From NCBI GenBank assembly GCA_964348825.1, contig CAYGDX010000001.1, positions 175,463 to 239,462 of the forward strand: a stretch of 64,000 nucleotides of DNA, written 5' to 3'. Under the pieces are notes generated by a model. It was not told the origin of the DNA. It worked only from the letters and a program-made list of their open reading frames with translations, and searched no databases. Below, piece by piece: positions 10,214 through 48,110 of the stretch. The DNA is from an uncultured Gammaproteobacteria bacterium. Lineage in GTDB: Bacteria; Patescibacteriota; Patescibacteriia; Veblenbacterales; UBA10138. How positions within the stretch are numbered: the stretch's first letter is position 1; the number at the start of each line of letters is the position of its first letter. The translations under genes and the position numbers were made by a program.

Positions 10214-11683
10214 ATGCGGATAACTACAAAAAATATTAATGATTGGTATTTGGCTGTAAATCGGAATATGTCTTTTTTGCATCACTCACTCAGCAAGAAA
10301 GGCCATATTAAAGGTTTGAGGTTATTTGGTTTTAAACAGCCAAGTTTATTGGAATTTTCTATTAATAAAAAATTTGAATCATTTCTTTATTATTCTCACA
10401 CATCAGCTGGTTCATTAATGAAAGAAATGAGAATATTGGTACAATCCAAAAGTTGGTTGCAAAAATTAAAAAATGATTATAAAAAATACGGTGATGAACT
10501 TCTTCAAGCTACAAAATTACTTAGTGTATCGACTGGCAATAGCGTAGTCTTAATTAAGAATTTTGATAGATATTTTAAATGTTACGCAAGCTACACCCCA
10601 GCATTAAATATTACGGCTTTAGGAGGTCGTGTTTTAACTGATGATTTATATAAATCAATTCAAAACCAGTTGGATTGTTCGTGGGATAAAGCTGGAAAAA
10701 TTATTAGTACACTAACTTTTCCAGATTTACCAACCCCTAGTCAAGCAGAGGAATTAGATTTTTTAAAAATAGTTAGTAGTCGTCATTCATTATCGAAATT
10801 TCAAATAGTTGTCCGTTTGAAACGTCATTATGAATATTATTCAGTTATCCCGGCCAACTTTGTGGGTGAACCGTGGGACTATGATTATTTTTATAATAAA
10901 CTAATAAATTATTCGGGTTCAGCCGATAAAGCAAGACAAAAAATATTAAGGCGTAGAGAAAAAATGATAAAAGAACGCGACGTTCTTTATAAAAAATTAA
11001 ATTTGGATTTAAATTCACGTCGATTAATTGTTGCCTTACGTTTAATTTCTGAATTGAACGAATATCGTAAGTTTATTTTTAGTTATGCGAGCGTGGGAGT
11101 GCGTGAAGTTTTAAACAAAATTGCTTTGGATAATAATTTTAACAGCTGGCGCGATATGCATTATTTGACAGCTGATGAAATTAAATTATTAGTAAAAAAT
11201 AAATCCGTCGCCAGGGTGAAAAAAAATTATGAACGTAGGTTTAATAGTTATTCTGGGGTAATTACCGACCTTGATTTAAATACAGAACGTGAACTAACTG
11301 GCCAAGAAATTAAACTTGTAAAAAATAATTTGGCGCCCTTTATTAAGTCCGCGTCGGTGAAGGATGATTCATTGCGGGGTTTTATTGGTAATAAAGGTTA
11401 TGCCAAAGGGCCAGTTCGGTTGGTGCTAAAAGAATCAGATTTTGCTAAAGTAAAAACCGGTGATATTTTAATAGCTAGAATGACATCGGCTGATTATATT
11501 GTGGTTATGAAAAAAGCGGCGGCATTTGTAACTGATGAAGGTGGTATAACTAGTCACCCTGCAATAGTGGCAAGGGAAATGAATAAACCTGGAATTGTAG
11601 GTACAAAATATGCTACTCAAATTTTTAAAGACGGTGATATGGTGGAGGTAGATGCTAATAAGGGTATTGTAAGGAAGATTTAA
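10214..11683 (+). CDS. Hypothetical protein with C-terminal PEP-utilizing-enzyme mobile (phosphohistidine swivel) domain
   Basis: The last ~85 aa (GDILIARMTSADYIVVMKKAAAFVTDEGGITSHPAIVAREMNKPGIVGTK…GDMVEVDANKGIV) match the PEP-utilizers mobile domain, including the conserved phospho-His context (GGxTSH). The N-terminal ~400 aa are AT-rich, unrecognised and lysine-rich. The true start is uncertain. Confidence 0.6.
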   Translation: MRITTKNINDWYLAVNRNMSFLHHSLSKKGHIKGLRLFGFKQPSLLEFSINKKFESFLYYSHTSAGSLMKEMRILVQSKSWLQKLKNDYKKYGDELLQATKLLSVSTGNSVVLIKNFDRYFKCYASYTPALNITALGGRVLTDDLYKSIQNQLDCSWDKAGKIISTLTFPDLPTPSQAEELDFLKIVSSRHSLSKFQIVVRLKRHYEYYSVIPANFVGEPWDYDYFYNKLINYSGSADKARQKILRRREKMIKERDVLYKKLNLDLNSRRLIVALRLISELNEYRKFIFSYASVGVREVLNKIALDNNFNSWRDMHYLTADEIKLLVKNKSVARVKKNYERRFNSYSGVITDLDLNTERELTGQEIKLVKNNLAPFIKSASVKDDSLRGFIGNKGYAKGPVRLVLKESDFAKVKTGDILIARMTSADYIVVMKKAAAFVTDEGGITSHPAIVAREMNKPGIVGTKYATQIFKDGDMVEVDANKGIVRKI

Positions 11684-12625: not shown

Positions 12626-13168
12626 ATGGTTACAATAATTTTTGAATCCCATGCCACATCTTTAGATAATGAAGCGGATTTAGCTTCGGGAATTTATGAT
12701 GTTGAATTGTCAGATTTGGGTAGGAAACAAGCACAAGAATTAGGGGAGAGGTATAAAAATGAAAATTTTGATGCTATTTTTTGTTCGGATTTAAAACGTT
12801 CTTATAATACGGGAGAAATTGCTTTTAATAATCGAGAGCTTACTATAATTAAGGATAAGCGTTTGCGTGAAGTGGATTATGGTGAGTTAACACGACAACC
12901 ATCTGGCACTTATATACAAAAAGTTCGTGGTGATTTTATAGATAAGCCATTTCCTAGTGGGCAAAGTTATCAACAAACAACTGATTTGATGAAATTATTT
13001 TTACTGGAGTTATTAGAGAAATATAATGATAAAAAAGTTATGATTATTGGTTCTCGTGCTACGCAGTATGCTTTAGAAAACTTGATTAATAAATTATCAC
13101 TTAAAGATGTGGTGATGTCGCCTTGGCACTGGCAACCAGGATGGCAGTATAATTTAATGGTCATTTAA
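12626..13168 (+). CDS. Histidine phosphatase superfamily (phosphoglycerate-mutase-like) protein, divergent catalytic motif
   Basis: Branch-1 histidine phosphatase pattern (…IIFESHATS…LSDLGRKQAQELGERY…DAIFCSDLKRSYNTGEIA…). The usual RHG appears as SHA in my alignment, so catalytic competence is uncertain. Confidence 0.55.
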   Translation: MVTIIFESHATSLDNEADLASGIYDVELSDLGRKQAQELGERYKNENFDAIFCSDLKRSYNTGEIAFNNRELTIIKDKRLREVDYGELTRQPSGTYIQKVRGDFIDKPFPSGQSYQQTTDLMKLFLLELLEKYNDKKVMIIGSRATQYALENLINKLSLKDVVMSPWHWQPGWQYNLMVI

Positions 13169-13171
13169 TAT

Positions 13172-13465
13172 ATGTTTTTTAATTTTAAAAGTCTACTCAA
13201 AGATAGATTACAACAACAAGGGATTGATTCCTCAGTTGAAGCCGCGATGGTAGCGAGTGTTTTTCGTCGTTTGGTGGCGGAAAAATTTGGTAAATCCGCG
13301 GCCGATGGTTTAAGGAGAATTGCGCTCATCAACGACGATACGATTGAAGTAGCCACGTCGTCTGCCCCATTTGCTTCCGAGCTTAAAATGAATGAATTTG
13401 ATTTTAAAGATGCCTTAGCTCAGGAATTTAAAGGCAAACAGTTTAGGTTAAGGATTTTTGGGTAA
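13172..13465 (+). CDS. DUF721-like small protein
   Basis: 97 aa. The C-terminal pattern (…DDTIEVATSSAPFASELKMNEFDFKDALAQEF) resembles DUF721 proteins, a family of predicted RNA/DNA-binding proteins often found near gyrB/dnaA regions. Confidence 0.45.
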   Translation: MFFNFKSLLKDRLQQQGIDSSVEAAMVASVFRRLVAEKFGKSAADGLRRIALINDDTIEVATSSAPFASELKMNEFDFKDALAQEFKGKQFRLRIFG

Positions 13466-13719
13466 TACCCCACCTAACCCCGCCTCATCGGCGGACAAGC
13501 TCCCTATAATGTATTTTAGGAAGAAATTTTACTAAATTTGGCTATTAGTTAGCCATTTTTTAATATGTCTTTCCAACTTGTGGAATTATCTAAAAAATGT
13601 TAAACTAATAGTAGTTTTACAGTACTATTTTGGTTGTTTTTTATTTATATCTGGATTCCCGCTTTCGCGGGAATGACGGGTGTAAATGTTAACAGTTTTG
13701 AGTTTTAACTTTTTATATT

Positions 13720-14112
13720 GTGTCCTTAAAGTATTATCTATGGTGGATGACAGCCGGTACACTCGGGGCCTGGGCTGTTTTGTGGTTGGTAATGAAGTAT
13801 TTGGATCCTCAAAGTACTGGATTTTTAGGGCTTCTACTTTTTTACGTGGCAGTTTTTTTAAGTGTTACCGGCACCTTAACCATTTTCGGGTTTACTTGGC
13901 GCATGTTCCGATTTAAAGATGAAGTATTATTTCGTCATATGACACAGGCCTTCAGACAAGGCGCAATGTTGGCTCTTGTGGTAGTAGGTGCTTTATTTTT
14001 GGAAGCACAAAAACTTTTGACTTGGTGGAATTTGGGATTACTTATTTTAGGATTAACACTTTTGGAATTTTTTTGGTTGTCGGTTAAGAGAATGCCGCCG
14101 GCAGACGTTTAG
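13720..14112 (+). CDS. Hypothetical membrane protein
   Basis: 130 aa with 3 to 4 hydrophobic helices. No recognisable family. Confidence 0.4.
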   Translation: MSLKYYLWWMTAGTLGAWAVLWLVMKYLDPQSTGFLGLLLFYVAVFLSVTGTLTIFGFTWRMFRFKDEVLFRHMTQAFRQGAMLALVVVGALFLEAQKLLTWWNLGLLILGLTLLEFFWLSVKRMPPADV

Positions 14113-14199
14113 AAACATTAGAACATTAAATCATTTGAACATTAGAGCAAATTAATTTGTTTAAATGTTCTGATGTTCTAGTGTTAAAGTGATAAAATT

Positions 14200-15222
14200 A
14201 TGTTAGACGAATTAAAACAACTCCGCACTGATGCTTTAAGTGAATTGAAAAATTTGACTGATTTGCCATCCTTAGAAATTTGGCGGGTGAAGTATTTAGG
14301 TCGGAAAGGAATGCTTTCGCAAATTAGTGACGGCATAGAAAGTGTGCCAGCTGAAAGTAAACCACAGGTCGGACAATTATTAAATGAAGTAAAACAAGAA
14401 TTAACTAAAGCGTGGCAAGAAGCTTTAACTCAAAATTCATCGGAGGGTAGTGAAGTGTCATTGGATTTTAATTTGCCTAGCATAGTAAAAAATGAGCGTG
14501 GTCATTTGCATCCTATTTCTATTATTCAAAAAGAATTAGAAGAATTATTTATTTCTTTGGGTTTTATGGTGCTCGATGGGCCGGAACTAGAAAGCGAATA
14601 TTATAATTTTGAAGCGTTAAATATTCCGTCGTGGCATCCAGCGCGCGATACCCAAGATACATTTTTTGTGAAAGGTGGCGAAGCGGATAACCGCCTTGTG
14701 CTTCGTACGCACACTTCAAATATGCAAGTAAGGGCACTAGAAAAATATGGCGCGCCGCTTCAAGCAGTTGTGCCGGGGCGAGTATTTCGCTATGAAGCGA
14801 CCGACGCTTCGCACGAACACACTTTTTGGCAAATGGAAGGGATAGTGGTAGATAAAGGAATTACAGTGGCCAATTTAATTGCTGTAATGCAGAGGCTACT
14901 TCAAGGTATTTTTAAAAAAGAAGTAGAGGTACGCCTGCGGCCTGGGTATTTTCCATTTGTGGAACCAGGGTTTGAGCTGGATATGAAATGTTTGATTTGT
15001 AAGGGTAGTGGTTGTTCAGTGTGCAAGCAAAGTGGTTGGGTGGAAATGATGCCTTGTGGTTTGGTGCATCCGAAGGTTTTAGAATACGGTGGGCTTGATC
15101 CGAAAGTGTATTCTGGTTTTGCGTTTGGGCTTGGTTTGTCGCGACTCGCAATGATGAAGTATGGAATAGATGATGTCAGATTGTTTTTGAGTGGAGATTT
15201 AAAGTTTTTAGAAAAGTTTTAG
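14200..15222 (+). CDS. pheS: Phenylalanine--tRNA ligase alpha subunit
   Basis: 340 aa. Class II aaRS core (…FRYEATDASHEHTFWQMEG…GFAFGLGLSRLAMMKYGIDDVR). Lies upstream of pheT. Confidence 0.95.
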   Translation: MLDELKQLRTDALSELKNLTDLPSLEIWRVKYLGRKGMLSQISDGIESVPAESKPQVGQLLNEVKQELTKAWQEALTQNSSEGSEVSLDFNLPSIVKNERGHLHPISIIQKELEELFISLGFMVLDGPELESEYYNFEALNIPSWHPARDTQDTFFVKGGEADNRLVLRTHTSNMQVRALEKYGAPLQAVVPGRVFRYEATDASHEHTFWQMEGIVVDKGITVANLIAVMQRLLQGIFKKEVEVRLRPGYFPFVEPGFELDMKCLICKGSGCSVCKQSGWVEMMPCGLVHPKVLEYGGLDPKVYSGFAFGLGLSRLAMMKYGIDDVRLFLSGDLKFLEKF

Positions 15223-15242
15223 TAAATTAAAAAATTTATTTT

Positions 15243-15403
15243 GTTACTTTTTATAAAGTAACACAAAATCTCCGCCTCGGTCTTCGGGTTTGAACAGTGC
15301 TCGTCAAACGAGCTGGCTCAAGCTATGCTAAGCGACCACAGACACGCTTGAGCCGGACGCTCGTTTGACTTCCGCTCTGTACAAACCCTACGACAGGGCG
15401 GCA
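15243..15403 (-). mobile_element. MITE-like repeat family 1, copy 1 (between pheS and pheT), inverted relative to the 37538 copy
   Basis: About 160 bp. The core is >80% identical to the copies at 37538, 54935 and 58508. It has ~30 bp imperfect terminal inverted repeats (cgccgccYtgtcgtagggtttgtacag … ctgttcaaacccgaagaccgaggcggcg) and a terminal palindromic hairpin (gttactttttataaagtaac). Confidence 0.65.
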
Positions 15404-15426
15404 CAACGACTAATTTAAATTACCTT

Positions 15427-17559
15427 ATGAATTTTTCCTACAACATTCTTCGCGAGATGGTTAAAGCGCCGAAAGAGGTATCGGCTGATGTTTTGGCGCG
15501 CACTTTAACAATGAGTGTGGTGGAAGTAGAAGAAATAATTTCTCAAGCCGAAAGTTTAGATAAGGTTCTGTTAGGTGAAGTGATAGCTATAAATACTCAC
15601 CCTAATGCCGATAAGTTAAAGCTCGCCACTGTAGATATTGGTAATGAAAAAGTGGAAGTGGTTTGTGGTGGGGTGAATTTGTCTGAGGGGATGAAAGTAG
15701 CGTTTGCGCAAATTGGTGCGCGAGTAAAATGGCACGGGCAAGGTGAATTAATTACTTTAGAGAAAGCAGCTATCCGCGGTGTGGAATCAAATGGTATGAT
15801 TTGTGCAGCCGAAGAATTGGGTTTGGTTGATGCAAAAGCGACAGAGCACGGAATTATGGATTTATCGGAATATCCAGATAAAATTGGCACGCCACTAGCC
15901 CAAGTTTTAAAATATAATGATTTAATAATTGCCGTAGATAATAAATCGATTACTCATCGTCCGGATTTATGGGGACATTTAGGCCTCGCTCGGGAACTGG
16001 CAGCGCTTTGGCAAACAAAATTGGTAATTCCAAAATTAGCTGATATTAAATCAACTGACGGCGCTTCATTATCAGTTAAGATTCAAGAACCTAAATTTTG
16101 TCAGCGGTATTTAGGTATAATTTTAAATAATGTAAAAGTAGGCGAGTCGCCAATATGGCTTAAGAATCGTTTGCAAGCTTTGGGGTTTAGACCAATAAAT
16201 AATGTGGTAGATGTAGCTAATTTCGTGATGGCCGAAATTGGCCAACCGCTTCATACTTTTGATTTGAAAAAATTATCATCACCTGAAATTACTGTGCGCA
16301 AAGCGACAGCGGGCGAAATAATAAAAACTTTAGATGAAATAGAAAGAATGTTAGATGCCAATACTTTAGTGATAGCGGATAAAAAACAGGCAATTGCAAT
16401 TGCTGGTATAATTGGAGGTTTAAATAGTGCGGTTGATGAGAAAACAACCAGTTTAGTAATTGAGTCAGCTAATTTTGATGCTGTGTCGGTTCGTAAAACT
16501 GCTGGAAAGCTCGGGTTTCGTACCGAAGCAAGCTCCAGATTTGAAAAAGCATTGGATCCGAATTTAGCTGAAGTAGGTATCAAACGTTTTGTTTATTTAT
16601 TGCAGGAAATTTGTCCGGAAGTCACGGTAGGCAGTAATTTGGTTGATGAATATCCAAGCGTACCCCAGACAACAACTATTAAAGTTAGCCCAACTTGGCT
16701 TAATGAAAGATTGGGTACCAAGTTAGCTAGTAAAACTATCAAAGATATTTTAGAAAGTTTAGGATTTGCGGTTAATCCCTCCTCACCTCCCCTTGAAAGA
16801 GGAGGAAGTATAGAGTGGGAAGTTGCGGTGCCATCTTTCCGCGCGACGCGTGATATATCTATTCCTGAAGATTTGATTGAAGAAGTGGCGCGAATTTATG
16901 GTTATGACAAAATTAAACCTACACTGCCAAAGTTTGATGTTAAAAATCAGGTACAAGATAAAGCGCAGGAATTAAGATGGAAAATTAGAGAAATTTTAGT
17001 TGGCGTTGGTTTTACTGAAAATTTAAGCTATTCTTTTGTAAGCAAGCAAACATTAGCTGCTTTACCCAGTGAAGTTTTGGCAGTATTACCTATACCAGTC
17101 GATAAATTATTAGAGCTTAAAAATCCGGTTAATCAAGCTGAAAGTTTTTTGCGGCCGGGTTTAATACCAAATATGGCAACACAGCTAGTGCTTAATGCTT
17201 TACATTTACCACATCAACCTATACAAATATTTGAATTAGGGCGCGTGTTCACAAATTTAGAAGGTGAGTTCAAAGCTTCCACTGCTAAAAATAATTTACC
17301 AACCCAACCTTGGCATTTGGCGCTCGCGGTGCGACTGCCTGGTAACGAAGTAGCACTTACTTATCAAACTTTGCGTGGCGCGATCGAGGCGATTGGCAAA
17401 AATTTAGGTGTTACATTTCAATTTGTGCCAGTTGGTAAAATGTCAGCTAAGATTATGGTAAGTGGTAAGCCAGTGGGAGGATTGGCAATTACACAATTTA
17501 TGAAATCAAGTTTGAAGCCGCTAGTTGCTTTGGCGGAGATTGATTTGGAGCAGTTGTAA
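15427..17559 (+). CDS. pheT: Phenylalanine--tRNA ligase beta subunit (short form)
   Basis: N-terminal tRNA-binding OB domain (GEVIAINTHPNADKLKLATVDIG…VVCGGVN), followed by B3/4 and B5-like regions. 710 aa, so it lacks the long C-terminal extension of canonical PheT. Contains a small hairpin-encoded insertion at about 16777..16808. Confidence 0.92.
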   Translation: MNFSYNILREMVKAPKEVSADVLARTLTMSVVEVEEIISQAESLDKVLLGEVIAINTHPNADKLKLATVDIGNEKVEVVCGGVNLSEGMKVAFAQIGARVKWHGQGELITLEKAAIRGVESNGMICAAEELGLVDAKATEHGIMDLSEYPDKIGTPLAQVLKYNDLIIAVDNKSITHRPDLWGHLGLARELAALWQTKLVIPKLADIKSTDGASLSVKIQEPKFCQRYLGIILNNVKVGESPIWLKNRLQALGFRPINNVVDVANFVMAEIGQPLHTFDLKKLSSPEITVRKATAGEIIKTLDEIERMLDANTLVIADKKQAIAIAGIIGGLNSAVDEKTTSLVIESANFDAVSVRKTAGKLGFRTEASSRFEKALDPNLAEVGIKRFVYLLQEICPEVTVGSNLVDEYPSVPQTTTIKVSPTWLNERLGTKLASKTIKDILESLGFAVNPSSPPLERGGSIEWEVAVPSFRATRDISIPEDLIEEVARIYGYDKIKPTLPKFDVKNQVQDKAQELRWKIREILVGVGFTENLSYSFVSKQTLAALPSEVLAVLPIPVDKLLELKNPVNQAESFLRPGLIPNMATQLVLNALHLPHQPIQIFELGRVFTNLEGEFKASTAKNNLPTQPWHLALAVRLPGNEVALTYQTLRGAIEAIGKNLGVTFQFVPVGKMSAKIMVSGKPVGGLAITQFMKSSLKPLVALAEIDLEQL

Positions 17560-19848: not shown

Positions 19849-20214
19849 ATGGATGATAAATCAGAAAAAAATATAATCGAAGGTGATACGATGCCAATAC
19901 TACCGGAGATAAAACTTTTTCTCACCAAATTAATGGCGGAAAAAGGCGTGGTTGATTTATCAACTGATTTACAAACTGATCTTTTAGAAAGCTTGCATCA
20001 GCGCTTGCAAGCTTTTTTGCTTTTAACTTTAACTAATAAATTATCAACCGAACAAGTTAAACAAATGGATGGGTTAATGGAAAGTGGGGAAATGGATATG
20101 ATAAAATCTTATGATTTTTTCCGTGCGAGTATTAAAGATGTTGATGAGGTAGTAGCCAAGGCGATGATGGATTTTAGGCAAGTGTATTTAACTGGTAGCC
20201 CTATACTTAAATAG
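19849..20214 (+). CDS. Hypothetical protein
   Basis: 121 aa, helical, no recognisable family. Confidence 0.35.
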   Translation: MDDKSEKNIIEGDTMPILPEIKLFLTKLMAEKGVVDLSTDLQTDLLESLHQRLQAFLLLTLTNKLSTEQVKQMDGLMESGEMDMIKSYDFFRASIKDVDEVVAKAMMDFRQVYLTGSPILK

Positions 20215-20371: not shown

Positions 20372-23300
20372 ATGGAACGTGAATCTCCACCCATCAATCC
20401 ACAATATGAAAAATACCGCGTGGCGCTCGAGCGGTATTTGGCGCAGGCCTCACCCGAAGCTAAGGCCGAGGCCAAACGTTTGATTGAAGAAGAGAGAAGA
20501 TTGGAGCGGGTTGAAATTTTGCAAAAATTGCAAGATGGTCTTTTAGTGCTTAAAAATATTTCGGAAAACCAAAGAACTGATCATCAAAAATGGGTAGTTG
20601 GTGCTGTAGAAGGCGCTTTAGGTAAAATTGGTGATGATGGTAAATACGAAATAAAGGCAGGGGAAAATAGTCAACGCGAAGGCGTACCAGTGGATGGATT
20701 AATTAAAGAGTTAGAAGATTTTTGGCATCAAGCGGGCGCCCGGGCGCGCGAACTAGAAAACGAAGTACGCAGGTTAAGACAAAAACATAGTGATGTTTTA
20801 GCCAATTGGGTACGTGAGGGTGCGACCGATATTACTTCAGAGCATCAAATCAAAATGGCTTGGCAAGAGGTGGCGAGTGGTAGTTCAGTTGAAATAAAAA
20901 ATCAAGTAGATGCTACTCGCAAAACTTGGGCTACGGCGGGCGGTATAGGAGATGATTATGATCCAGCGACTGGTGAATATAAATTACAAAGCGGTGAAGC
21001 AATGCGTCAGTTGGTGGAAAATAAATTAGTTGGTGAAGTTAGGCAAGCCAAGAATAAAACTGATGCTTTAGGTGGCACGCGAGATTTTTTGATTGGTAAA
21101 AGTAAGGGATATTTTGAAGCACATCCAGAAATGAAAGGTGATAAGCAACATTGGCGCACCGAATACGAAGCTAAGTTTATTTCTCGTGACTTCCGTTCTA
21201 CTGGTGCAGTACAAACTGATTATGATAAAGCTATGGTAGAAATGTCGGCCCGGCGTGAATTAGTGCTACCGAATTTGAAAGTTGAATTACCAGAAGTTGT
21301 GCCCGTGGTAGTTGAACCAACTCCGGCGTCAGTTGAGCCAATATCACTTCAACCGGAAAAGCCAGAAGCCAAACGAGCGTATCTTATTAATGTTTCTGAA
21401 GTAGTTAAGCAGTATGCTCACCGACAAGCTGAATTACGTTTGAATGAATTACAAAAAGCTGAGGTGAAGGGTTTTTTCAAAACAATTGGCAGTGGCTTTA
21501 AGAAAATGTGGCTTAATTTAGGAGAAGAAGGGTATCGCCGTAAATTTGAGAAGGAAATTTTAACAGAAATTACAAGCAATAAAAATTTATTAGCTGAAAT
21601 TGAAGCACGTTTGGGTAAAAGTAAAAGTGCCACTACTTTAGAAAGCAAGGGATTGAATGAAAAGGTTTTAAGTGATGTAATTGATCGGTATCAAAAAGAA
21701 GTAGCCGAGGCTGAAGAAAAAGGTGAAGTAGTGGTGGATGCGCGGGTGAATCAAGAAGCCACAAAGTTATTTGTAGAATACGCCCAAGGTGCAATTACTA
21801 CGCGCGAGGAATTTGATAAACAAGTAGAAGAAAAAATTCTGCCACTGCTTGCTGGTCGTAAATTTACACTTGATTCAAATTACGCTAAGGAAGCTGAAAA
21901 AAATAAAAAAGATAAGATTGAAATGTATGCTAATAATTATTTTGAATTAGCTAAGAATTATAAAACATACATTGATAAAAAATTAGCTGAATACCCACCA
22001 GATCAGCGCGGCAAATTAATTGAACACTTGAAAGGCGAATTAGGTTTGGATTTGCAACTCGGGTTTATGCGTCGCGATTTAGAGGAAACTAAACCGCAAG
22101 AAGTTTTGAAATGGTACGACAAACTAGTTGATTTTACACAAAGTATTCCAATCATTAATAAAATTGTGGCTAATCCACTAGCTTATGGCATACTCGGCGG
22201 AGTAGCTGGTACTTTTGTGGGGCGTGGTGTTAAACGTTTTGCTGTTGGCAAGGGATTAATCGGTATTGCTGGTATGGCGCCGTGGCTCGCGCCGATAATT
22301 TTAGGTATGGGTTTTGGTGGAGCATATCTTTCGGCCCGTCGTTCACGTAATTTACAATATGATCGCGGTATGGATTTGCGTCGTAGAGCACTAGGCGCAG
22401 AAAGTGGTGGCGAGCGGACTGACAAAATGCGTGAATTTAATTATGGAATTAAACGCGCCGATGAAATTGTTTCGGCCTTGCAAGCGGTGCGAGCTAAATC
22501 TGGCTTAACTGATGCCGATAAAGAAATTTTAGGAGAAGTAATCGCCCGTTTTAAAGTAGAAAAAGAAAGATCAGTTGATTTAATTGGGGCTAATATTGAG
22601 GAAGGGTCTAAACACAAAACTAGAATTAAGAGTGTGACAGATGTTAAGTATTCATTAAAACAATCTTTAGAAAAATTTGGTTTGAAAGAATCAGATATTC
22701 AATCTTTTGTTGATAAACATTATAAAATTTTTATTGATGATATAGATAATAAAGACAAGTTGTTTAATAAATTTAGACATTGGGAAATGGGTAAAGCTGG
22801 CGTGATTGGCGCGACAATGGGTTTGGCCGGAGGTGCAGCTGGACAATATTTATGGGAACAAGGACAAGAATTATTTGGATTTACGCCAAAAACTGAAAGT
22901 GCCATTACTCATTTGATGCACTATATGAAAGGTGAGGGTAGTACCGCTTATGCTGGTGCGATGCAAGAAATTCCAATTGCGGCCTTAGGTGAAGCGGCGC
23001 ATCACCCCACTATTAAAATTCCACAAGGTTGGAGTTTATCCTCAGCGGGGGAAAGCAATCATTACGATTTAATTAATGCTGATGGTAATAAAGTTAGCGA
23101 TATAATTTTGAATTCCGACGGCACTTTGGATCAAGGAAGTTTGGATGAATTATCGGCTTCTGGTTTTAAAGTGAGTGATCAAGTGGAAACTGTTAGAACT
23201 AGTGTGCCAGATGCCACAGTACCAGCGGGCAAGGTGAATCCACTTGAGGCGTTTAAAGATCAGTTGGGTACACACCCACGAACTGATTGGCATGATGAAT

Positions 23301-26284
23301 TGGGTACGCGTTATAGTAAATTCTTTAATAAGTTGATTGAGTTTGAAGGTAAACAGCAAATGTTATATTTGGAAAAAGGTGCCGATGGCACAGTTTATAT
23401 TAATGCTGATAAAATTGCCCAGAATTTAGTAAAGAATGTTAATGAAGCGTTTGCTAAATTTGGCACTAACCCTGATGGAAGTCACGATTCTAAGTTACTA
23501 CATCTTAAAGAACAGTTAACAATGTGGGCTAGAAGTGGGGAGTTGCATAAACATTTGCAAGCCGCGATTATTCCAACCGAAAGTGCAAATCGGCAGGGCT
23601 TAAGTATGTTGGTTGATGGTGCGAGCGGTAATCATAAAATCGCTTTGCCACCGGGAATTTCTCGCCTTTTTACTACGCCAGAAAGTTTAAAGTATTTACA
23701 TCACCCTTTGCGTTATATAGAGTTGCGTCTTAATGGTCATACTTTAGCTACCAGTGTTGGCGGCGATATGCAAGCTGTAGCGCCTACGCCGATTGAAAAA
23801 ATTATAGAAACTCCGGTTCATCACACTGAAATTATCCCCACCGCGCATGACTTCGACGCACCACCAGTGTTACCATTTTATCCGAGGAAGGCGTTGGAGA
23901 GAACTCCAGAAAATCCTATTATATTGCCATATTATTTATATGGCGAAACAATGACACCAGAAAAAGAAGAACAAATAAGAAAACAATTATCAGAAACATT
24001 AAGGAGTAATCCCGACGCAAATTTGGATCATTATAAAGAAATTGAGGAGTATATTGGCAAATGGAATAGTGATTACCGTCAGGAAATAGAAAAGTTTGTG
24101 AGAGAAGTTGGCCCAATGAATGAAAAATGTCGTGTATCTGTTTGTATACCTGTAGCTGGTCACCAAGAGGGTAATAGTATTTACAAAACACTGGAAAATT
24201 ATTTAAATCAAACAATTGAGAAAGGAAATTTTGAAATAGTGTTATTTGTTAATCATCCTGAAAATGATGTAAATGGTAATAAAATTAGGCCGGATAATAC
24301 GCTGGAAGAAATAGAGCGTTTTAAAAAAGATTACCCGGGATTAAATGTTGTGACTATGTATAAATCTTTACCCTTGGAAGAGGTAAAGATTGGTTACATC
24401 AGGAAATTACTTAATGACACTGTATTAATGAGACATCATCAAAGAGGTAAGAGTGTTGAAGATTTAATAATTATTAGTAATAATGCTGATAATAAAGGTG
24501 TGGCGCCTGAATATATTAAAAATTTTGTTAATAAGTTTGATGAAAATTCTAATATTGATTCATATCTTGGTCAAGTGGATTGGGATCCAGAGGTTTATAT
24601 TAAAAATCCATTAGCTCATGTAGGGACTAGACTATTTCAATATATTAATATTCAAAATAGAAGCAAGGGTAGACACATTGAATCATCGGGTTGTAATTTT
24701 GCTCTAAGATCGAGTGTATATGCGGCAGTAGGTGGTTATGACGGTGAGGCGACACTAGGTGAAGATAATGAATTAGGTGCCGCAATTAAATATGGAAGAA
24801 AAAATGCCAGGGTTCACAAAGGTGTTGAATATGCTGGGGCAAGAGTTTCCAGAATATATTCATCCGCTAGAAGGATAGAGTATTCCCTAAAAAATGGGCT
24901 TTCACCTATAGAACAATGGGATAATGGTTTTAGTGCCTTTGATGATGAGGTTAGAAAAGTTAAATGGAATCTTAAGGGGAAGGCAATTGATTATGAAGAT
25001 GTGGATCAGGTAAAGTCTTTAATTAATGAGTTAGAAAATATTATTAATAGGACCATTAATAGAATGTCTAGTTGGGGTTTAGTATCCGACAGTCTAGTTT
25101 TTAAAAAATCTTTAGGTTGGTTGGGTATTAAATACGAAATGGTTGGCGACAAAAGAATAAAGATAATTAATGCTGATCGTTTGATTAGAGATTTAAAGGT
25201 GTATCAGAGTGATGGTTTATTGATAAGAGATTTGAAATTAGGTAAATCAGATGCCAAAGAAAAGTTGTCTAAATTGAAGAGTGAACGTAATATTGTTGAA
25301 AGTTCTGCATTAGAAAACAGATTAGTTGATTTTTACAAAAACGATCAGTTGATTTTGCATACTAATAGTGTTATTCCAAATCTAGACAAAATTAAAATCT
25401 CAGCAAATAAAAAAAAGGTGGGAGATATTTTGGTGGCTGATGATTTATCTATTTATAATGGAGATGATTCAAAAGTGTTAGCCGGTTATAAAGAGGGGGA
25501 AGATAAGGTTGTTATTCTTAAAGAAGTTGGAAGTAACACAATGATTAATCGTTTAGAAGAACAGGGCTGGTCAGGATATGGGTTAGAAGTGTCTAGTTTT
25601 GATAGTTATTTAAAGAAGAAGGGATTTTCAAATAAAAATGTTCTTTTAGCTGATGATGAGTTTTATGAAGTTAGTAAAAGTGGTTCACCTAAATTAGCAA
25701 GAATATATGAGCCGGCACTATCTGATTTACAAGGATTTTTAAATCGCGGTGGTAAATTAAGTATCAAAGAATCATTGTCAGTAATGATAAGAAGTTGTGA
25801 TGGAATCAATGGATTACATAAAAATAATATAGCTAATATAGATTTAGCACCATTAAACATTTTGGTTTTTAAAGATGGTATTAAAATTACTGATCTTGAC
25901 GGCTCCAGTATTTCTTCGGACGGTAATAAATTTATTAGAAAATCATTGGGATTAAATAGATTTATTTGTGCTCCAGAATTGTTTGGTAAGAATAATACTT
26001 TTGATAAGACAGTTGATGTATATGCGGCTGGTGCAAATTTATATTATCTTTTAACTGGTAAATGGCCTTATGATATTGATGCAGAGACAACAGGAATGAG
26101 TCGTGAAGAGGTCATGGATAAATATAAACCACTTCATATGTCTGGAAATATTGATATACCCTCTAACATACCAGTTGAATTGGGGCGTGTAATTAAAAAG
26201 GCCATGAGTCCTAATCCCACAGACAGATATCAAACTATCGAGGAATTAAATAATGAATTATTAAATATATACGAAAGTATTTAA
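20372..26284 (+). CDS. Giant multidomain membrane protein: N-terminal coiled-coil region, TM helices, GT2-family glycosyltransferase domain and C-terminal Hanks-type protein-kinase-like domain
   Basis: 1970 aa, uninterrupted.
- aa ~1-560 are Glu/Lys-rich coiled coil.
- Hydrophobic helices lie at about aa 598-653 (IVANPLAYGILGGVAGTFVG…GLIGIAGMAPWLAPIILGMGFGGAYL) and at about aa 807-826.
- aa ~1230-1520 have GT-A fold features (CRVSVCIPVAGHQEGNSI…EIVLFVNHPEND…SSGCNFALRSSVYAAVGGYDGEATLGEDNELG).
- aa ~1740-1970 carry kinase subdomains VIb to IX (NIDLAPLNIL as the catalytic loop, KITDLDGSS as a DFG-like motif, FICAPE as the APE motif, DVYAAGANLYYLLTGKWPY as subdomain IX).
- A hairpin plus T-run terminator follows at about 26371..26396. 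Confidence 0.8.
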   Translation: MERESPPINPQYEKYRVALERYLAQASPEAKAEAKRLIEEERRLERVEILQKLQDGLLVLKNISENQRTDHQKWVVGAVEGALGKIGDDGKYEIKAGENSQREGVPVDGLIKELEDFWHQAGARARELENEVRRLRQKHSDVLANWVREGATDITSEHQIKMAWQEVASGSSVEIKNQVDATRKTWATAGGIGDDYDPATGEYKLQSGEAMRQLVENKLVGEVRQAKNKTDALGGTRDFLIGKSKGYFEAHPEMKGDKQHWRTEYEAKFISRDFRSTGAVQTDYDKAMVEMSARRELVLPNLKVELPEVVPVVVEPTPASVEPISLQPEKPEAKRAYLINVSEVVKQYAHRQAELRLNELQKAEVKGFFKTIGSGFKKMWLNLGEEGYRRKFEKEILTEITSNKNLLAEIEARLGKSKSATTLESKGLNEKVLSDVIDRYQKEVAEAEEKGEVVVDARVNQEATKLFVEYAQGAITTREEFDKQVEEKILPLLAGRKFTLDSNYAKEAEKNKKDKIEMYANNYFELAKNYKTYIDKKLAEYPPDQRGKLIEHLKGELGLDLQLGFMRRDLEETKPQEVLKWYDKLVDFTQSIPIINKIVANPLAYGILGGVAGTFVGRGVKRFAVGKGLIGIAGMAPWLAPIILGMGFGGAYLSARRSRNLQYDRGMDLRRRALGAESGGERTDKMREFNYGIKRADEIVSALQAVRAKSGLTDADKEILGEVIARFKVEKERSVDLIGANIEEGSKHKTRIKSVTDVKYSLKQSLEKFGLKESDIQSFVDKHYKIFIDDIDNKDKLFNKFRHWEMGKAGVIGATMGLAGGAAGQYLWEQGQELFGFTPKTESAITHLMHYMKGEGSTAYAGAMQEIPIAALGEAAHHPTIKIPQGWSLSSAGESNHYDLINADGNKVSDIILNSDGTLDQGSLDELSASGFKVSDQVETVRTSVPDATVPAGKVNPLEAFKDQLGTHPRTDWHDELGTRYSKFFNKLIEFEGKQQMLYLEKGADGTVYINADKIAQNLVKNVNEAFAKFGTNPDGSHDSKLLHLKEQLTMWARSGELHKHLQAAIIPTESANRQGLSMLVDGASGNHKIALPPGISRLFTTPESLKYLHHPLRYIELRLNGHTLATSVGGDMQAVAPTPIEKIIETPVHHTEIIPTAHDFDAPPVLPFYPRKALERTPENPIILPYYLYGETMTPEKEEQIRKQLSETLRSNPDANLDHYKEIEEYIGKWNSDYRQEIEKFVREVGPMNEKCRVSVCIPVAGHQEGNSIYKTLENYLNQTIEKGNFEIVLFVNHPENDVNGNKIRPDNTLEEIERFKKDYPGLNVVTMYKSLPLEEVKIGYIRKLLNDTVLMRHHQRGKSVEDLIIISNNADNKGVAPEYIKNFVNKFDENSNIDSYLGQVDWDPEVYIKNPLAHVGTRLFQYINIQNRSKGRHIESSGCNFALRSSVYAAVGGYDGEATLGEDNELGAAIKYGRKNARVHKGVEYAGARVSRIYSSARRIEYSLKNGLSPIEQWDNGFSAFDDEVRKVKWNLKGKAIDYEDVDQVKSLINELENIINRTINRMSSWGLVSDSLVFKKSLGWLGIKYEMVGDKRIKIINADRLIRDLKVYQSDGLLIRDLKLGKSDAKEKLSKLKSERNIVESSALENRLVDFYKNDQLILHTNSVIPNLDKIKISANKKKVGDILVADDLSIYNGDDSKVLAGYKEGEDKVVILKEVGSNTMINRLEEQGWSGYGLEVSSFDSYLKKKGFSNKNVLLADDEFYEVSKSGSPKLARIYEPALSDLQGFLNRGGKLSIKESLSVMIRSCDGINGLHKNNIANIDLAPLNILVFKDGIKITDLDGSSISSDGNKFIRKSLGLNRFICAPELFGKNNTFDKTVDVYAAGANLYYLLTGKWPYDIDAETTGMSREEVMDKYKPLHMSGNIDIPSNIPVELGRVIKKAMSPNPTDRYQTIEELNNELLNIYESI

Positions 26285-26370
26285 CTAGGGCGATCATTAA
26301 TGGTATAATTTTATAAAATATTTTTTACCTTGCTATATTTTTATCCATCTGCTATACTAATAAAGTAATA

Positions 26371-26396
26371 AAAGGCCCACTTAAGGGCCTTTTAAA
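26371..26396 (+). terminator. Intrinsic terminator after the giant ORF
   Basis: aaaggccc-actta-agggccttt followed by T/A-rich sequence. Confidence 0.5.
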
Positions 26397-26429: not shown

Positions 26430-26618
26430 ATGACAAACTTTTTAACCACTTACTTACGTGGGGCGTGGGAAGAGATGAAAAAAGTGGCTTGGCCCACCAA
26501 GCGTGAAATTACTCAACACACTATGTTGGTGATTGGTATTTCGGTGGTAGTGGCTTTGTTTTTAGGCGCGCTCGACTATATTTTTAACTTTGGGCTGGAA
26601 CAGTTGTTGTATAAGTAA
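26430..26618 (+). CDS. secE: Preprotein translocase subunit SecE
   Basis: 62 aa with a single TM helix, directly upstream of nusG. N-terminus MTNFLTTYLRGAWEEMKKVAWPTKRE is SecE-like. Confidence 0.8.
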   Translation: MTNFLTTYLRGAWEEMKKVAWPTKREITQHTMLVIGISVVVALFLGALDYIFNFGLEQLLYK

Positions 26619-47702: not shown

Positions 47703-48110
47703 GTGAAAAAAGAAAATAGTAAAATTGTATTGTGGGTAGTACACCAAAATATTGATATAGTAAACAATACGAATGAAATAATTAAGCCAGCCGGTTTGGA
47801 AGTCATAGCACTTAAGAGTTTTAGGGTTTTGTTTAATAGATACAATCGACAGAGATATGATTATACTAAAGTCGATGTGATTTTGATAGATTACCCTATA
47901 ATTAAAACTCGAAAAAATAACATAAGAAGGTTAATTCAATGTGCACCCCAAGCTAAAATAATTTTATTATCCGATTATAATGATGTAAGTTTTGTAGCTA
48001 ATGAATTAGGTGTGGATTATATGTATCGAGGATTGGCAGCATTAAATGATTTTTTGAAAATATTCTACACACATTCCAGTTATATTAAAGAGAAGCATAG
48101 TAATTGTTAA
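47703..48110 (+). CDS. Hypothetical protein with degenerate receiver-like fold
   Basis: 135 aa, very AT-rich. Its pattern (KIVLWVVHQN…VDVILIDYPI…AKIILLSDYND) resembles a receiver domain that lacks the acidic pocket. GTG start. Confidence 0.3.
   Translation: MKKENSKIVLWVVHQNIDIVNNTNEIIKPAGLEVIALKSFRVLFNRYNRQRYDYTKVDVILIDYPIIKTRKNNIRRLIQCAPQAKIILLSDYNDVSFVANELGVDYMYRGLAALNDFLKIFYTHSSYIKEKHSNC

Follow-up and report, generated by a model that had tools for sequence, protein, structure and literature searches.

A giant, predicted membrane-anchored protein family of Candidate Phyla Radiation bacteria carrying a divergent GT-A glycosyltransferase and a Hanks-type kinase in an exchangeable C-terminal cassette

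Analysis of a 64,000-nucleotide stretch of DNA from an uncultured bacterium (contig CAYGDX010000001.1; the whole stretch is referred to below as the window, and nucleotide coordinates are those of the window unless a locus is named) showed that the 1970-residue protein encoded at 20372..26284 on the forward strand, the query of this study, belongs to a family of giant proteins from bacteria of the Candidate Phyla Radiation (CPR). The family has a common plan: an upstream DUF5663-like gene, a backbone with three hydrophobic segments and a mid domain, a Pro-rich linker, and an exchangeable C-terminal cassette. In most members the cassette is a divergent glycosyltransferase (GT) of the GT-A fold (GT2-like), to which a subfamily and the query add a Hanks-type kinase, either fused or encoded by the next gene. 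The explanation that on balance we judge probable for these observations jointly is that of a CPR family of giants with an exchangeable enzyme cassette, in which the query is a mosaic and acts as a membrane-anchored GT tuned or complemented by the kinase.

The gene consists of a single unbroken open reading frame (ORF) from ATG to stop, the coordinates including the stop codon. A 7.2 kb interval spanning the gene and parts of both flanks is present with 0 mismatches in two Logan assemblies from different runs (L001 and L002), and the exact 1970-residue protein is also present on a 469 kb NCBI contig. The uninterrupted 5.9 kb ORF described in an earlier reading of the window, made from the letters and translations without database searches (the sequence-only reading), is therefore borne out by independent assemblies.

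An exhaustive HMMER search with residues 1200-1970 of the query, comprising GT and kinase, revealed 332 representative clusters at E ≤ 1e-30. Among the best 150 of these 332 clusters, about 24 proteins match GT and kinase in one stretch (positions ~4 to ~770 of the search query) at 35-46% identity; they are mostly giants of 1,600-2,900 residues, together with a few shorter fragments, and the GT+kinase relatives share the backbone as well (alignment over residues ~321-1200). Most other matches among the best 150 comprise the GT only and end there. Word-index homologue searches were misleading in this respect, yielding only four full-length relatives and no close relative of the kinase (best E 7e-4), and the idea of a unique recent fusion with an orphan kinase, which came from these searches, was dropped after the exhaustive HMMER search. 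A metagenome scan with the kinase module, by a pattern method that detects close relatives only, returned one locus at 26% identity. The GT-kinase fusion, which the sequence-only reading had called a non-standard architecture, thus recurs in about 24 representative clusters and in split versions elsewhere, and the association of the two enzymes is old and recurrent in CPR bacteria.

The organism names attached to the relatives are Candidatus Komeilibacteria, Buchananbacteria and Magasanikbacteria and 'Patescibacteria group' metagenome-assembled genomes (MAGs), and their automatic names are 'glycosyltransferase' (MBP6942470.1, Candidatus Buchananbacteria) or 'serine/threonine protein kinase' (JGI). 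These automatically annotated CPR giants share with the query the backbone, the linker, the GT module, the upstream DUF5663 gene and, in a subset, the kinase. The 'giant Patescibacteria proteins' of the lipocone paper were considered as well and are different proteins from this family.

Homologues with the modules encoded separately, which the sequence-only reading had proposed to look for, were found for the kinase as well as for backbone and GT. At L015/L016 and L017, the gene order is DUF5663, a giant with backbone and GT, and a separate kinase gene 12-70 nt downstream; the giant is 43-44% identical to query residues 1121-1640 and the kinase gene 38-42% identical to residues 1643-1968. L014, which has a fused kinase, shares synteny (FtsH ... 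RecG) with L015. At L005 (5359-9281), L006 and L007 (5905-10123), backbone and GT are encoded in different, overlapping frames at the linker (query residues ~1176-1184), and the L007 alignment stops at residue 1176, within the linker. Two assemblies show the frame change of L005/L006, which, like that of L007, could reflect gene fission, a pseudogene or programmed frameshifting. Taken together, the split and fused (Rosetta-stone) patterns suggest that backbone, GT and kinase constitute one functional unit. The short GT-like proteins P0015-P0027 were considered as free-standing genes and rejected as such: several represent the C-terminal ends of giants whose contigs are short, and P0016 comes from the 3' part of a gene that a frame change divides in two.

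The GT module spans residues 1246-1640 (24107..25291, forward strand), including a C-terminal helical/beta-hairpin subdomain at residues ~1544-1640. All peptide motifs quoted in the sequence-only reading from the GT and kinase parts are present in the translation, with VSVCIPVAGHQ (residue 1255), EIVLFVNHPEND (1288), SSGCNFALRS (1438) and GEDNELG (1463) in the GT. The query has no Pfam GT match at E ≤ 1-5, including Glycos_transf_2 and Glyco_tranf_2_3; the sole GT-type match in NCBIfam is EpsD (E 0.0038, 16.7 bits versus a cut-off of 370), and the relatives P0004/5 match Glyco_trans_2_3 at E 0.05-0.16 only. An AlphaFold2 (AF2) model of residues 1206-1690, based on 15 homologues, is confident (pLDDT 80.8, pTM 0.80) and supports a GT-A fold for the module. 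Since Pfam and NCBIfam give no significant GT2 match, the GT call rests on the structure model: the GT-A glycosyltransferase fold recognized in the sequence-only reading stands, whereas its GT2 assignment is not recovered by profile searches. As a sequence family, the module is new to Pfam.

The family possesses a conserved GT signature of its own, composed of CIPVAGHQEG, SNDADNKG, SSGAN, GGY, (G/A)ED and SRRA. Of 38 family-conserved GT columns (149 sequences), the query keeps 37, including D1373 and E1464-D1465, the latter pair being conserved in at least 90% of the 149 sequences. The single deviating column is the first Asp of the DxD motif (D1371N). This DxD-equivalent, N1371-A1372-D1373 (24482..24490, forward strand), is DAD in the rest of the family, so that the query reads S-N-N-A-D-N versus S-N-D-A-D-N, with the second Asp retained; the N1371 codon, AAT, is one transition from GAT. 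In the AF2 model the DxD-equivalent motif lies at the end of a beta-strand and E1464-D1465, a candidate for the acidic catalytic-base motif (TED/ED) of inverting GT2 enzymes, at the start of a helix. In this placement the DxD-like motif and the conserved acidic 'ED' would resemble their counterparts in the GT2-type GT-A enzymes PcManGT (6yv7), TarP (6h1j) and SpsA (1h7l) and in the catalytic domains of hyaluronan and cellulose synthases. The query module differs from these enzymes in being too divergent for the Pfam GT2 models while having its own conserved signature, in the additional C-terminal helical/hairpin subdomain, and in carrying NAD, not DAD, in the DxD position.

The GT is followed by a non-RD Hanks-type protein-kinase domain at residues ~1690-1970 (25439..26281, forward strand), identified by Pfam Pkinase, AF2 and Foldseek. 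Pkinase (PF00069) matches residues 1784-1959 (E 2e-18, 67.2 bits versus a gathering cut-off of 31.7), a match that covers profile positions 83-258 only, corresponding to the C-lobe; all 31 members of the subfamily match Pkinase, with a best E of 1.2e-31. The best solved relative by sequence is PknB of M. tuberculosis (E 1.6e-14). An AF2 model of residues 1640-1970, of moderate confidence (pLDDT 67.6, pTM 0.70), shows an N-lobe sheet and helix before the C-lobe, and Foldseek places PknB kinase domains first (E 6.5e-15, ~300 aligned columns, target-normalised TM 0.70-0.77). As PknB is aligned over ~300 columns, the domain is, by its model, a complete bilobal kinase. The Pkinase search on the C-terminal part and the comparison of its predicted structure with PknB, both proposed in the sequence-only reading, thus confirm the Hanks-type kinase-like domain described there.

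The kinase motifs found are VVILKEV (1713), NIDLAPLNIL (1822), KITDLDG (1838), FICAPE (1864) and DVYAAG (1882), and the key residues are K1717, D1744, N1822-I-D1824, N1829, D1841-L-D1843, APE 1867-1869 and R1952. K1717 and D1824 are 107 residues apart, and relative to seven aligned Hanks kinases the query shows insertions, not deletions; the compression between VAIK Lys and catalytic loop noted in the sequence-only reading is therefore not upheld. The catalytic-loop consensus of the family is [H/N]-x-D-x-[A/S]-P-x-N, that is, non-RD and without Lys. Deep-branching members (P0043, P0045, P0048, P0057 and P0061) keep a canonical LGSGxMG Gly-loop, which points to descent from ordinary Hanks kinases.

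With PknB of M. tuberculosis, its top match by sequence and structure, and with Stk1/StkP, the query shares the bilobal fold, and with PknB-type kinases it has in common the beta3 Lys, the catalytic Asp and Asn, the Mg-binding Asp, APE, the alphaF Asp and the subdomain-XI Arg. In contrast to PknB, Stk1 and StkP, it lacks PASTA or sensor domains, and the kinase is located at the C-terminus of a giant GT-bearing scaffold rather than at the N-terminus of a receptor. The query family also departs from the PknB type in being non-RD ([H/N]xD), in the replacement of the catalytic-loop Lys by Ala or Ser and of DFG by DLD(G), and in the loss of the Gly-loop in the query's clade, and the query scores 70 bits versus the 450 cut-off of NCBIfam PknB_PASTA_kin. 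PADLOC and PHROGs searches, bearing on a defence-system and a tape-measure-like role, respectively, gave generic kinase C-lobe matches only, and both ideas were rejected. Likewise, in the comparison with the anti-phage defence kinases PD-T4-6 and MADS Mad6 only the generic kinase C-lobe of the query (residues 1785-1968) matches, and the query scores 41 bits versus the NCBIfam MAD6 cut-off of 460.

The composition of the gene changes where the cassette begins. The GC content falls from 0.404 to 0.318 along the ORF, with the best change-point after codon 1179 (nt 23909; p ≤ 0.002 by codon shuffling), and the change-point of the GC content at third codon positions (GC3) lies after codon 1176 (p ≤ 0.008). 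The GC change-point coincides with the conserved linker PPVLPFYPRKALER (residues 1164-1177; 23861..23902, forward strand), a module boundary whose motif is common to P0002 and P0004 and is of the Pro-rich type PPVLPFxxRKALE across the family. The sharp GC drop near 23.9 kb reported in the sequence-only reading is thus genuine and is located at the module boundary. No other 2.3 kb of the window has as low a GC content as the 3' part, and the GC3 of the kinase (0.19) is below that of all 52 other ORFs. Relatives drop by only 0.01-0.03 at the same boundary, making the drop in the query 3-8 times larger and arguing against amino-acid composition as its sole cause. At L014 the GC content is 0.341 in the kinase, 0.393 in the GT and 0.406 in the backbone, suggesting that part of the drop in the query is intrinsic to the kinase module. 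In codon usage the 3' half is a marginal outlier (0.116 versus a 95th percentile of 0.111 and a maximum of 0.131).

Different parts of the query have different closest relatives. The backbone is closest to P0002 and P0003 (41-53% identity over residues ~37-1296, with many others matching more weakly), neither of which has a kinase. The GT is closest to kinase-less proteins (54-57%), and in a neighbor-joining tree the GTs of all 14 kinase-bearing proteins form a clade without the query (bootstrap 100/100). In the kinase tree the query lies with P0032 and P0033, members of the kinase-bearing clade. These incongruent module histories indicate that the combination in the query was assembled by cassette exchange, and the query is an evolutionary mosaic of a backbone from the Komeilibacteria-like P0002/P0003 clade, a GT from the kinase-less clade and a kinase from the kinase-bearing clade; it differs from the other CPR giants in pairing a kinase with a GT of an otherwise kinase-less clade. 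It counts against this interpretation that the module trees are simple neighbor-joining trees on a subset of the family. The proposal in the sequence-only reading that a 3' module was fused on recently holds in part: it fits the mosaic and a GC drop exceeding that of relatives, but is not supported by the low-GC kinase of L014, the marginal codon-usage signal and the ancient pairing of GT with kinase. As for the C-termini of the two closest backbones, P0003 carries a GT9 (heptosyltransferase-family) domain at residues ~1300-1656 (Pfam E 5e-12), and P0002 a truncated, degenerate GT2-like stub at residues ~1290-1416 with KDVKD replacing SNDAD.

Upstream of the linker, the backbone has no detectable homology to known domains. 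A Glu/Lys-rich region at residues 1-597 (20372..22162, forward strand; E 12-14%, K 8-13%), conserved at 46-52% identity with P0002/P0003, harbors a strongly conserved island, GDKQHWRTEYEAK, at residues ~255-268; this HWRTEYEAK island is 61-65% identical to P0004/5. No Pfam domain was found in residues 1-597. While the Glu/Lys-rich composition agrees with the sequence-only reading, the coiled coil assigned there to residues 1-560 does not: in a crude shuffle test, with no dedicated coiled-coil predictor or structure model behind it, heptad periodicity exceeded the 95% null in only 10-12% of 42-residue windows (5% expected) and the 99% null in 3%. Hydropathy analysis revealed exactly three conserved Gly-rich hydrophobic segments in the protein, all three within the stretches given in that reading. 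Segment 1 (residues 598-617; 22163..22222, forward strand; KD19 1.51) is kept in the family-averaged hydropathy profile; segment 2 (residues 629-653; 22256..22330, forward strand; KD19 1.73) is the strongest in the protein and is followed by a K/R-rich stretch (7 K+R in 27 residues); and segment 3 (residues 807-826; 22790..22849, forward strand) is a Gly/Ala-rich GxxxG zipper with a KD19 of 1.02 in the query and 1.26 in the family average, the highest of any segment there, and with G813, G817 and Q825 invariant in alignments A4/A5. The protein has no signal peptide. The conserved 'mid' region that follows (residues 831-1163; 22862..23860, forward strand) is K/R-poor and P/T/S-rich, is 44-47% identical to P0002/P0003/P0170, and gave no match in Pfam or to PDB sequences and has no recognised fold. 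A backbone profile searched against PDB sequences returned nothing meaningful (best E 0.14), and Pfam scans of the distant family members L009-L012 gave no domain.

We propose that the hydrophobic segments would anchor the giant in the cytoplasmic membrane. GT and kinase would face the cytoplasm, the compartment that supplies NDP-sugars and ATP, and the GT would move a sugar onto a membrane-proximal acceptor, which may be lipid-linked, polymeric or a protein. The kinase, a non-RD protein kinase presumed to be constitutively competent, would probably act on the giant itself or else on a partner or acceptor protein, and this phosphorylation would tune or license glycosylation; phosphorylation of the glycan product would be less likely. 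The coupling of surface glycan synthesis to phospho-signalling put forward in the sequence-only reading is likewise a hypothesis. We favor a hairpin anchor with a non-spanning third segment, which would leave the C-terminus in the cytoplasm. By functional analogy only, this arrangement resembles the Wzc-type polysaccharide co-polymerase/BY-kinases, in which a membrane scaffold with a C-terminal cytoplasmic kinase controls envelope glycan assembly. BY-kinases are P-loop (Walker A/B) enzymes of unrelated fold and without a GT domain, and they have no sequence similarity to the query.

Several observations speak against this proposal. Three spanning segments in a protein without signal peptide would place GT and kinase outside the cell, a location that fits poorly with their requirement for NDP-sugar and ATP, and segments 1 and 3 are only marginally hydrophobic. 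In the GT, the query is the only NAD among ~120 DAD. For the kinase, the model built on an 8-sequence alignment has low confidence in the N-lobe (pLDDT 53-70). The Gly-loop of the query, YNGDDSKV, is degenerate, having a single Gly alongside two Asp and no GxGxxG, in keeping with the non-canonical glycine loop pointed out in the sequence-only reading. The catalytic loop is N-I-D-L-A-P-L-N, with NID for HRD and A1826 replacing Lys, and DLD stands in place of DFG. Asp1744 occupies the probable alphaC Glu column (Glu in 25 of 26 family sequences), an assignment that rests on the helix at model residues 94-110. Given these degenerate motifs, kinase activity could be weak or altered. Furthermore, 12 of the 31 subfamily members also match the Pfam Kdo/WaaP sugar-kinase model (best E 1.7e-6), and a search of the literature yielded no description of this giant family or of DUF5663.

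The deviating motifs, with the Gly-loop, catalytic loop, DFG and alphaC Glu all altered, are what might be expected if the query kinase were a pseudokinase, a structural or regulatory appendage that binds but transfers no phosphate, as the sequence-only reading had suggested; its GC3, the lowest in the window, is compatible with relaxed constraint. However, in 31 GT+kinase-type sequences (25-46% identity) K1717, D1824, N1829, D1841, P1868, E1869, D1882 and R1952 are invariant, and the beta3 Lys, catalytic Asp and Asn and Mg-binding Asp among them (K1717, D1824, N1829 and D1841) are invariant across 26-31 family members. Of 26 kinase columns conserved in at least 90% of sequences the query differs at one, by the conservative E1744D, while NID, [A/S]P and DLD are signatures of the clade or family and not lesions private to the query. 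With the catalytic residues conserved and one conservative deviation, a pseudokinase is distinctly unlikely and the kinase is probably active and non-RD. APE, the alphaF Asp and the subdomain-XI Arg are features of eukaryotic-type protein kinases with protein substrates, and their retention favors action on proteins rather than on small molecules. Conversely, the absence of the catalytic-loop Lys together with the Kdo/WaaP cross-matches would fit a different role, which we consider unlikely: the module may be a small-molecule or glycan kinase whose substrate is the sugar that the adjacent GT installs, or its acceptor. The cassette would then be a 'glycosylate then phosphorylate' unit, comparable to Fam20B/POMK with glycosyltransferases or to WaaP in the lipopolysaccharide core. 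Consistent with such a role, the kinase is obligatorily tied to the GT, fused or adjacent, its family-wide loop HxDx[A/S]PxN is without the Lys typical of Ser/Thr protein kinases, and no activation-loop Ser/Thr is conserved in the family alignment. There is also a precedent: Fam20B, an enzyme of kinase fold, phosphorylates xylose and in this way controls GalT-II, so that sugar phosphorylation governs the next GT step (PMC7948968). The likeness of Fam20B/POMK to the query is a functional analogy only; they are eukaryotic secretory-pathway enzymes of other kinase families and are not fused to a GT. The Pkinase matches, moreover, are far stronger than those to Kdo (best E 1e-31 versus 1.7e-6), the nearest structures are the bona fide protein kinases PknB, AMPK and Stk1, and APE, the alphaF Asp and the subdomain-XI Arg are invariant.

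If all three segments do span the membrane, the protein might instead be a CPR-specific envelope or host-interface machine, with mid domain and cassette outside or delivered to the host, a glycan kinase, and cassettes recombined at the linker. We consider this very unlikely; were it true, the outward-facing glycan kinase would represent the Fam20B/POMK logic in a bacterial, fused version. CPR bacteria that have been cultivated live as episymbionts, and among effectors GT-A and Hanks-kinase domains are common. The giant could also be a host- or competitor-directed effector platform, like polymorphic or large glucosylating toxins, whose Gly-zipper helices insert into or cross a membrane and whose exchangeable GT/kinase 'warhead' hits targets in the episymbiont's host cell. 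The cassettes that follow the linker do vary (GT2-like, GT2-like plus kinase, GT9 in P0003, degenerate in P0002), the compositional break lies directly past the linker, and an odd number of conserved Gly-zipper segments would put the C-terminus outside. Yet the GT is conserved at 35-57% identity over hundreds of clusters, unlike hypervariable toxin tips, the protein has neither a signal peptide nor any secretion or trafficking domain recognised by Pfam, NCBIfam, PHROGs or PADLOC searches, no conserved immunity-like gene lies downstream (secE here, RecG or solute-binding protein genes elsewhere), and the locus is situated amid core housekeeping genes. The resemblance of the query family to such toxins is thus confined to cassette exchange at a linker, and an effector role is highly improbable. 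Lastly, a sharp GC shift exactly at a conserved motif, and relatives (L005/L006 and L007) whose frames change at the same point, might indicate an artefactual fusion, produced by chimeric assembly at the linker or by a sequencing error that merged two genes. This is barely credible in view of the three identical assemblies, without mismatch across gene and flanks, the upstream and downstream genes that are indistinguishable in GC, GC3 and codon usage, and the continuous backbone-GT(-kinase) ORFs of many relatives; in addition, family members share just 25-57% amino acid identity, making long exact k-mers at the linker unlikely. A chimeric contig was rejected on flank composition and the identical independent assemblies, and so was the assembly error or pair of separate genes that the sequence-only reading had named as grounds for revising its view.

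The preferred reading, a membrane-anchored GT tuned or complemented by a kinase, concerns organisms that represent a large share of bacterial diversity: the CPR/Patescibacteria. How these bacteria construct and control their envelopes, or interact with hosts, is poorly understood. Our results provide an entry to a widespread, uncharacterised gene pair, a DUF5663-like gene and a giant membrane protein whose catalytic head is a glycosyltransferase family missed by Pfam and repeatedly coupled to a distinctive non-RD Hanks kinase. The pattern of fusion and fission is strong genomic evidence that GT and kinase act in one pathway, and their coupling offers a testable handle on glycan-linked phosphorylation in CPR organisms, while the exchange of modules illustrates how large multidomain proteins evolve in reduced genomes. 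Both GT-A enzymes and Hanks kinases are themselves of known kinds, and the finding is a solid lead and not a paradigm shift.

The DUF5663-like gene of the window (19849..20214, forward strand) encodes 121 residues and is 34% identical to DUF5663 (PF18908) proteins upstream of homologues, with no Pfam match itself. A local hidden Markov model placed such a gene directly upstream of the giant, on the same strand and at most 182 nt away, in the window; the same holds for 11 of 13 other distinct loci. Loci with the gene pair include L003, L005-L012, L014, L015 and L017; the exceptions to the upstream position are L004, where it is divergently oriented, and L010, where it lies just downstream of the giant. 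The spacing is often a 4-nt gap or an overlap. The DUF5663-like gene and the giant thus look like a conserved two-gene operon. In the window the giant is surrounded by core housekeeping genes in the order PheS, PheT, GyrB, the 121-residue ORF, the giant, SecE, NusG, L11 and L1, with secE (Pfam) at 26430..26618. Approximately 85 nt past the stop codon of the giant and ahead of secE, a consensus scan identified a palindromic terminator-like hairpin with a perfect 10-bp stem (TAAAAGGCCC...GGGCCTTTTA; 26369..26394, no strand), which may be a bidirectional terminator. A promoter scan around the giant gene showed no enrichment (26 found versus 26.1 expected from shuffles).

At other loci of the family, further arrangements were observed. 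L017 (3177-15296) contains a tandem of DUF5663, a giant (1502 aa), P0101 (634 aa), a 144-aa gene, a second giant (1445 aa), DUF5663 and the start of the next gene; P0101 consists of a kinase followed by the N-terminal half of a GT module, and the tandem points to cassettes that were duplicated and rearranged locally. L015 has, at 12804-15765, a resolvase/recombinase gene, an HTH_17 gene and a phage-integrase gene a few kb beyond its separate giant and kinase genes, so that a mobile element may lie close to this cassette. At L004 (14532-16802), the giant P0004 is succeeded by an unbroken run of five T4SS_pilin-like genes and by a gene for a solute-binding protein, and at L003 type IV pilus genes (PilM/PilO-like, N_methyl) adjoin on the other strand; the tie of the family to surface-appendage genes is weak and inconsistent. 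The closest relative found, L008 (JBBTZY010000155.1), is 84% identical over query residues 2-534 and has its own upstream DUF5663; the giant gene runs off the end of the contig. MAGs titled 'uncultured Gammaproteobacteria bacterium' carry family and DUF5663 genes at L009 (CAZEEW010000021.1) and L011 (CAZRZQ010000030.1); these contigs are probably misbinned, the family being otherwise seen only in Patescibacteria.

Elsewhere in the window, ARAGORN detected no tRNA or tmRNA gene within the whole 64 kb. A 489-residue ORF at 10214..11683 (forward strand; GC 0.326) is matched by Pfam over its last ~70 residues only (PEP-utilizers mobile domain), leaving the preceding ~410 residues unassigned, and the lowest-GC ORF in the window (0.284) is a 135-residue frame with a GTG start at 47703..48110 (forward strand).

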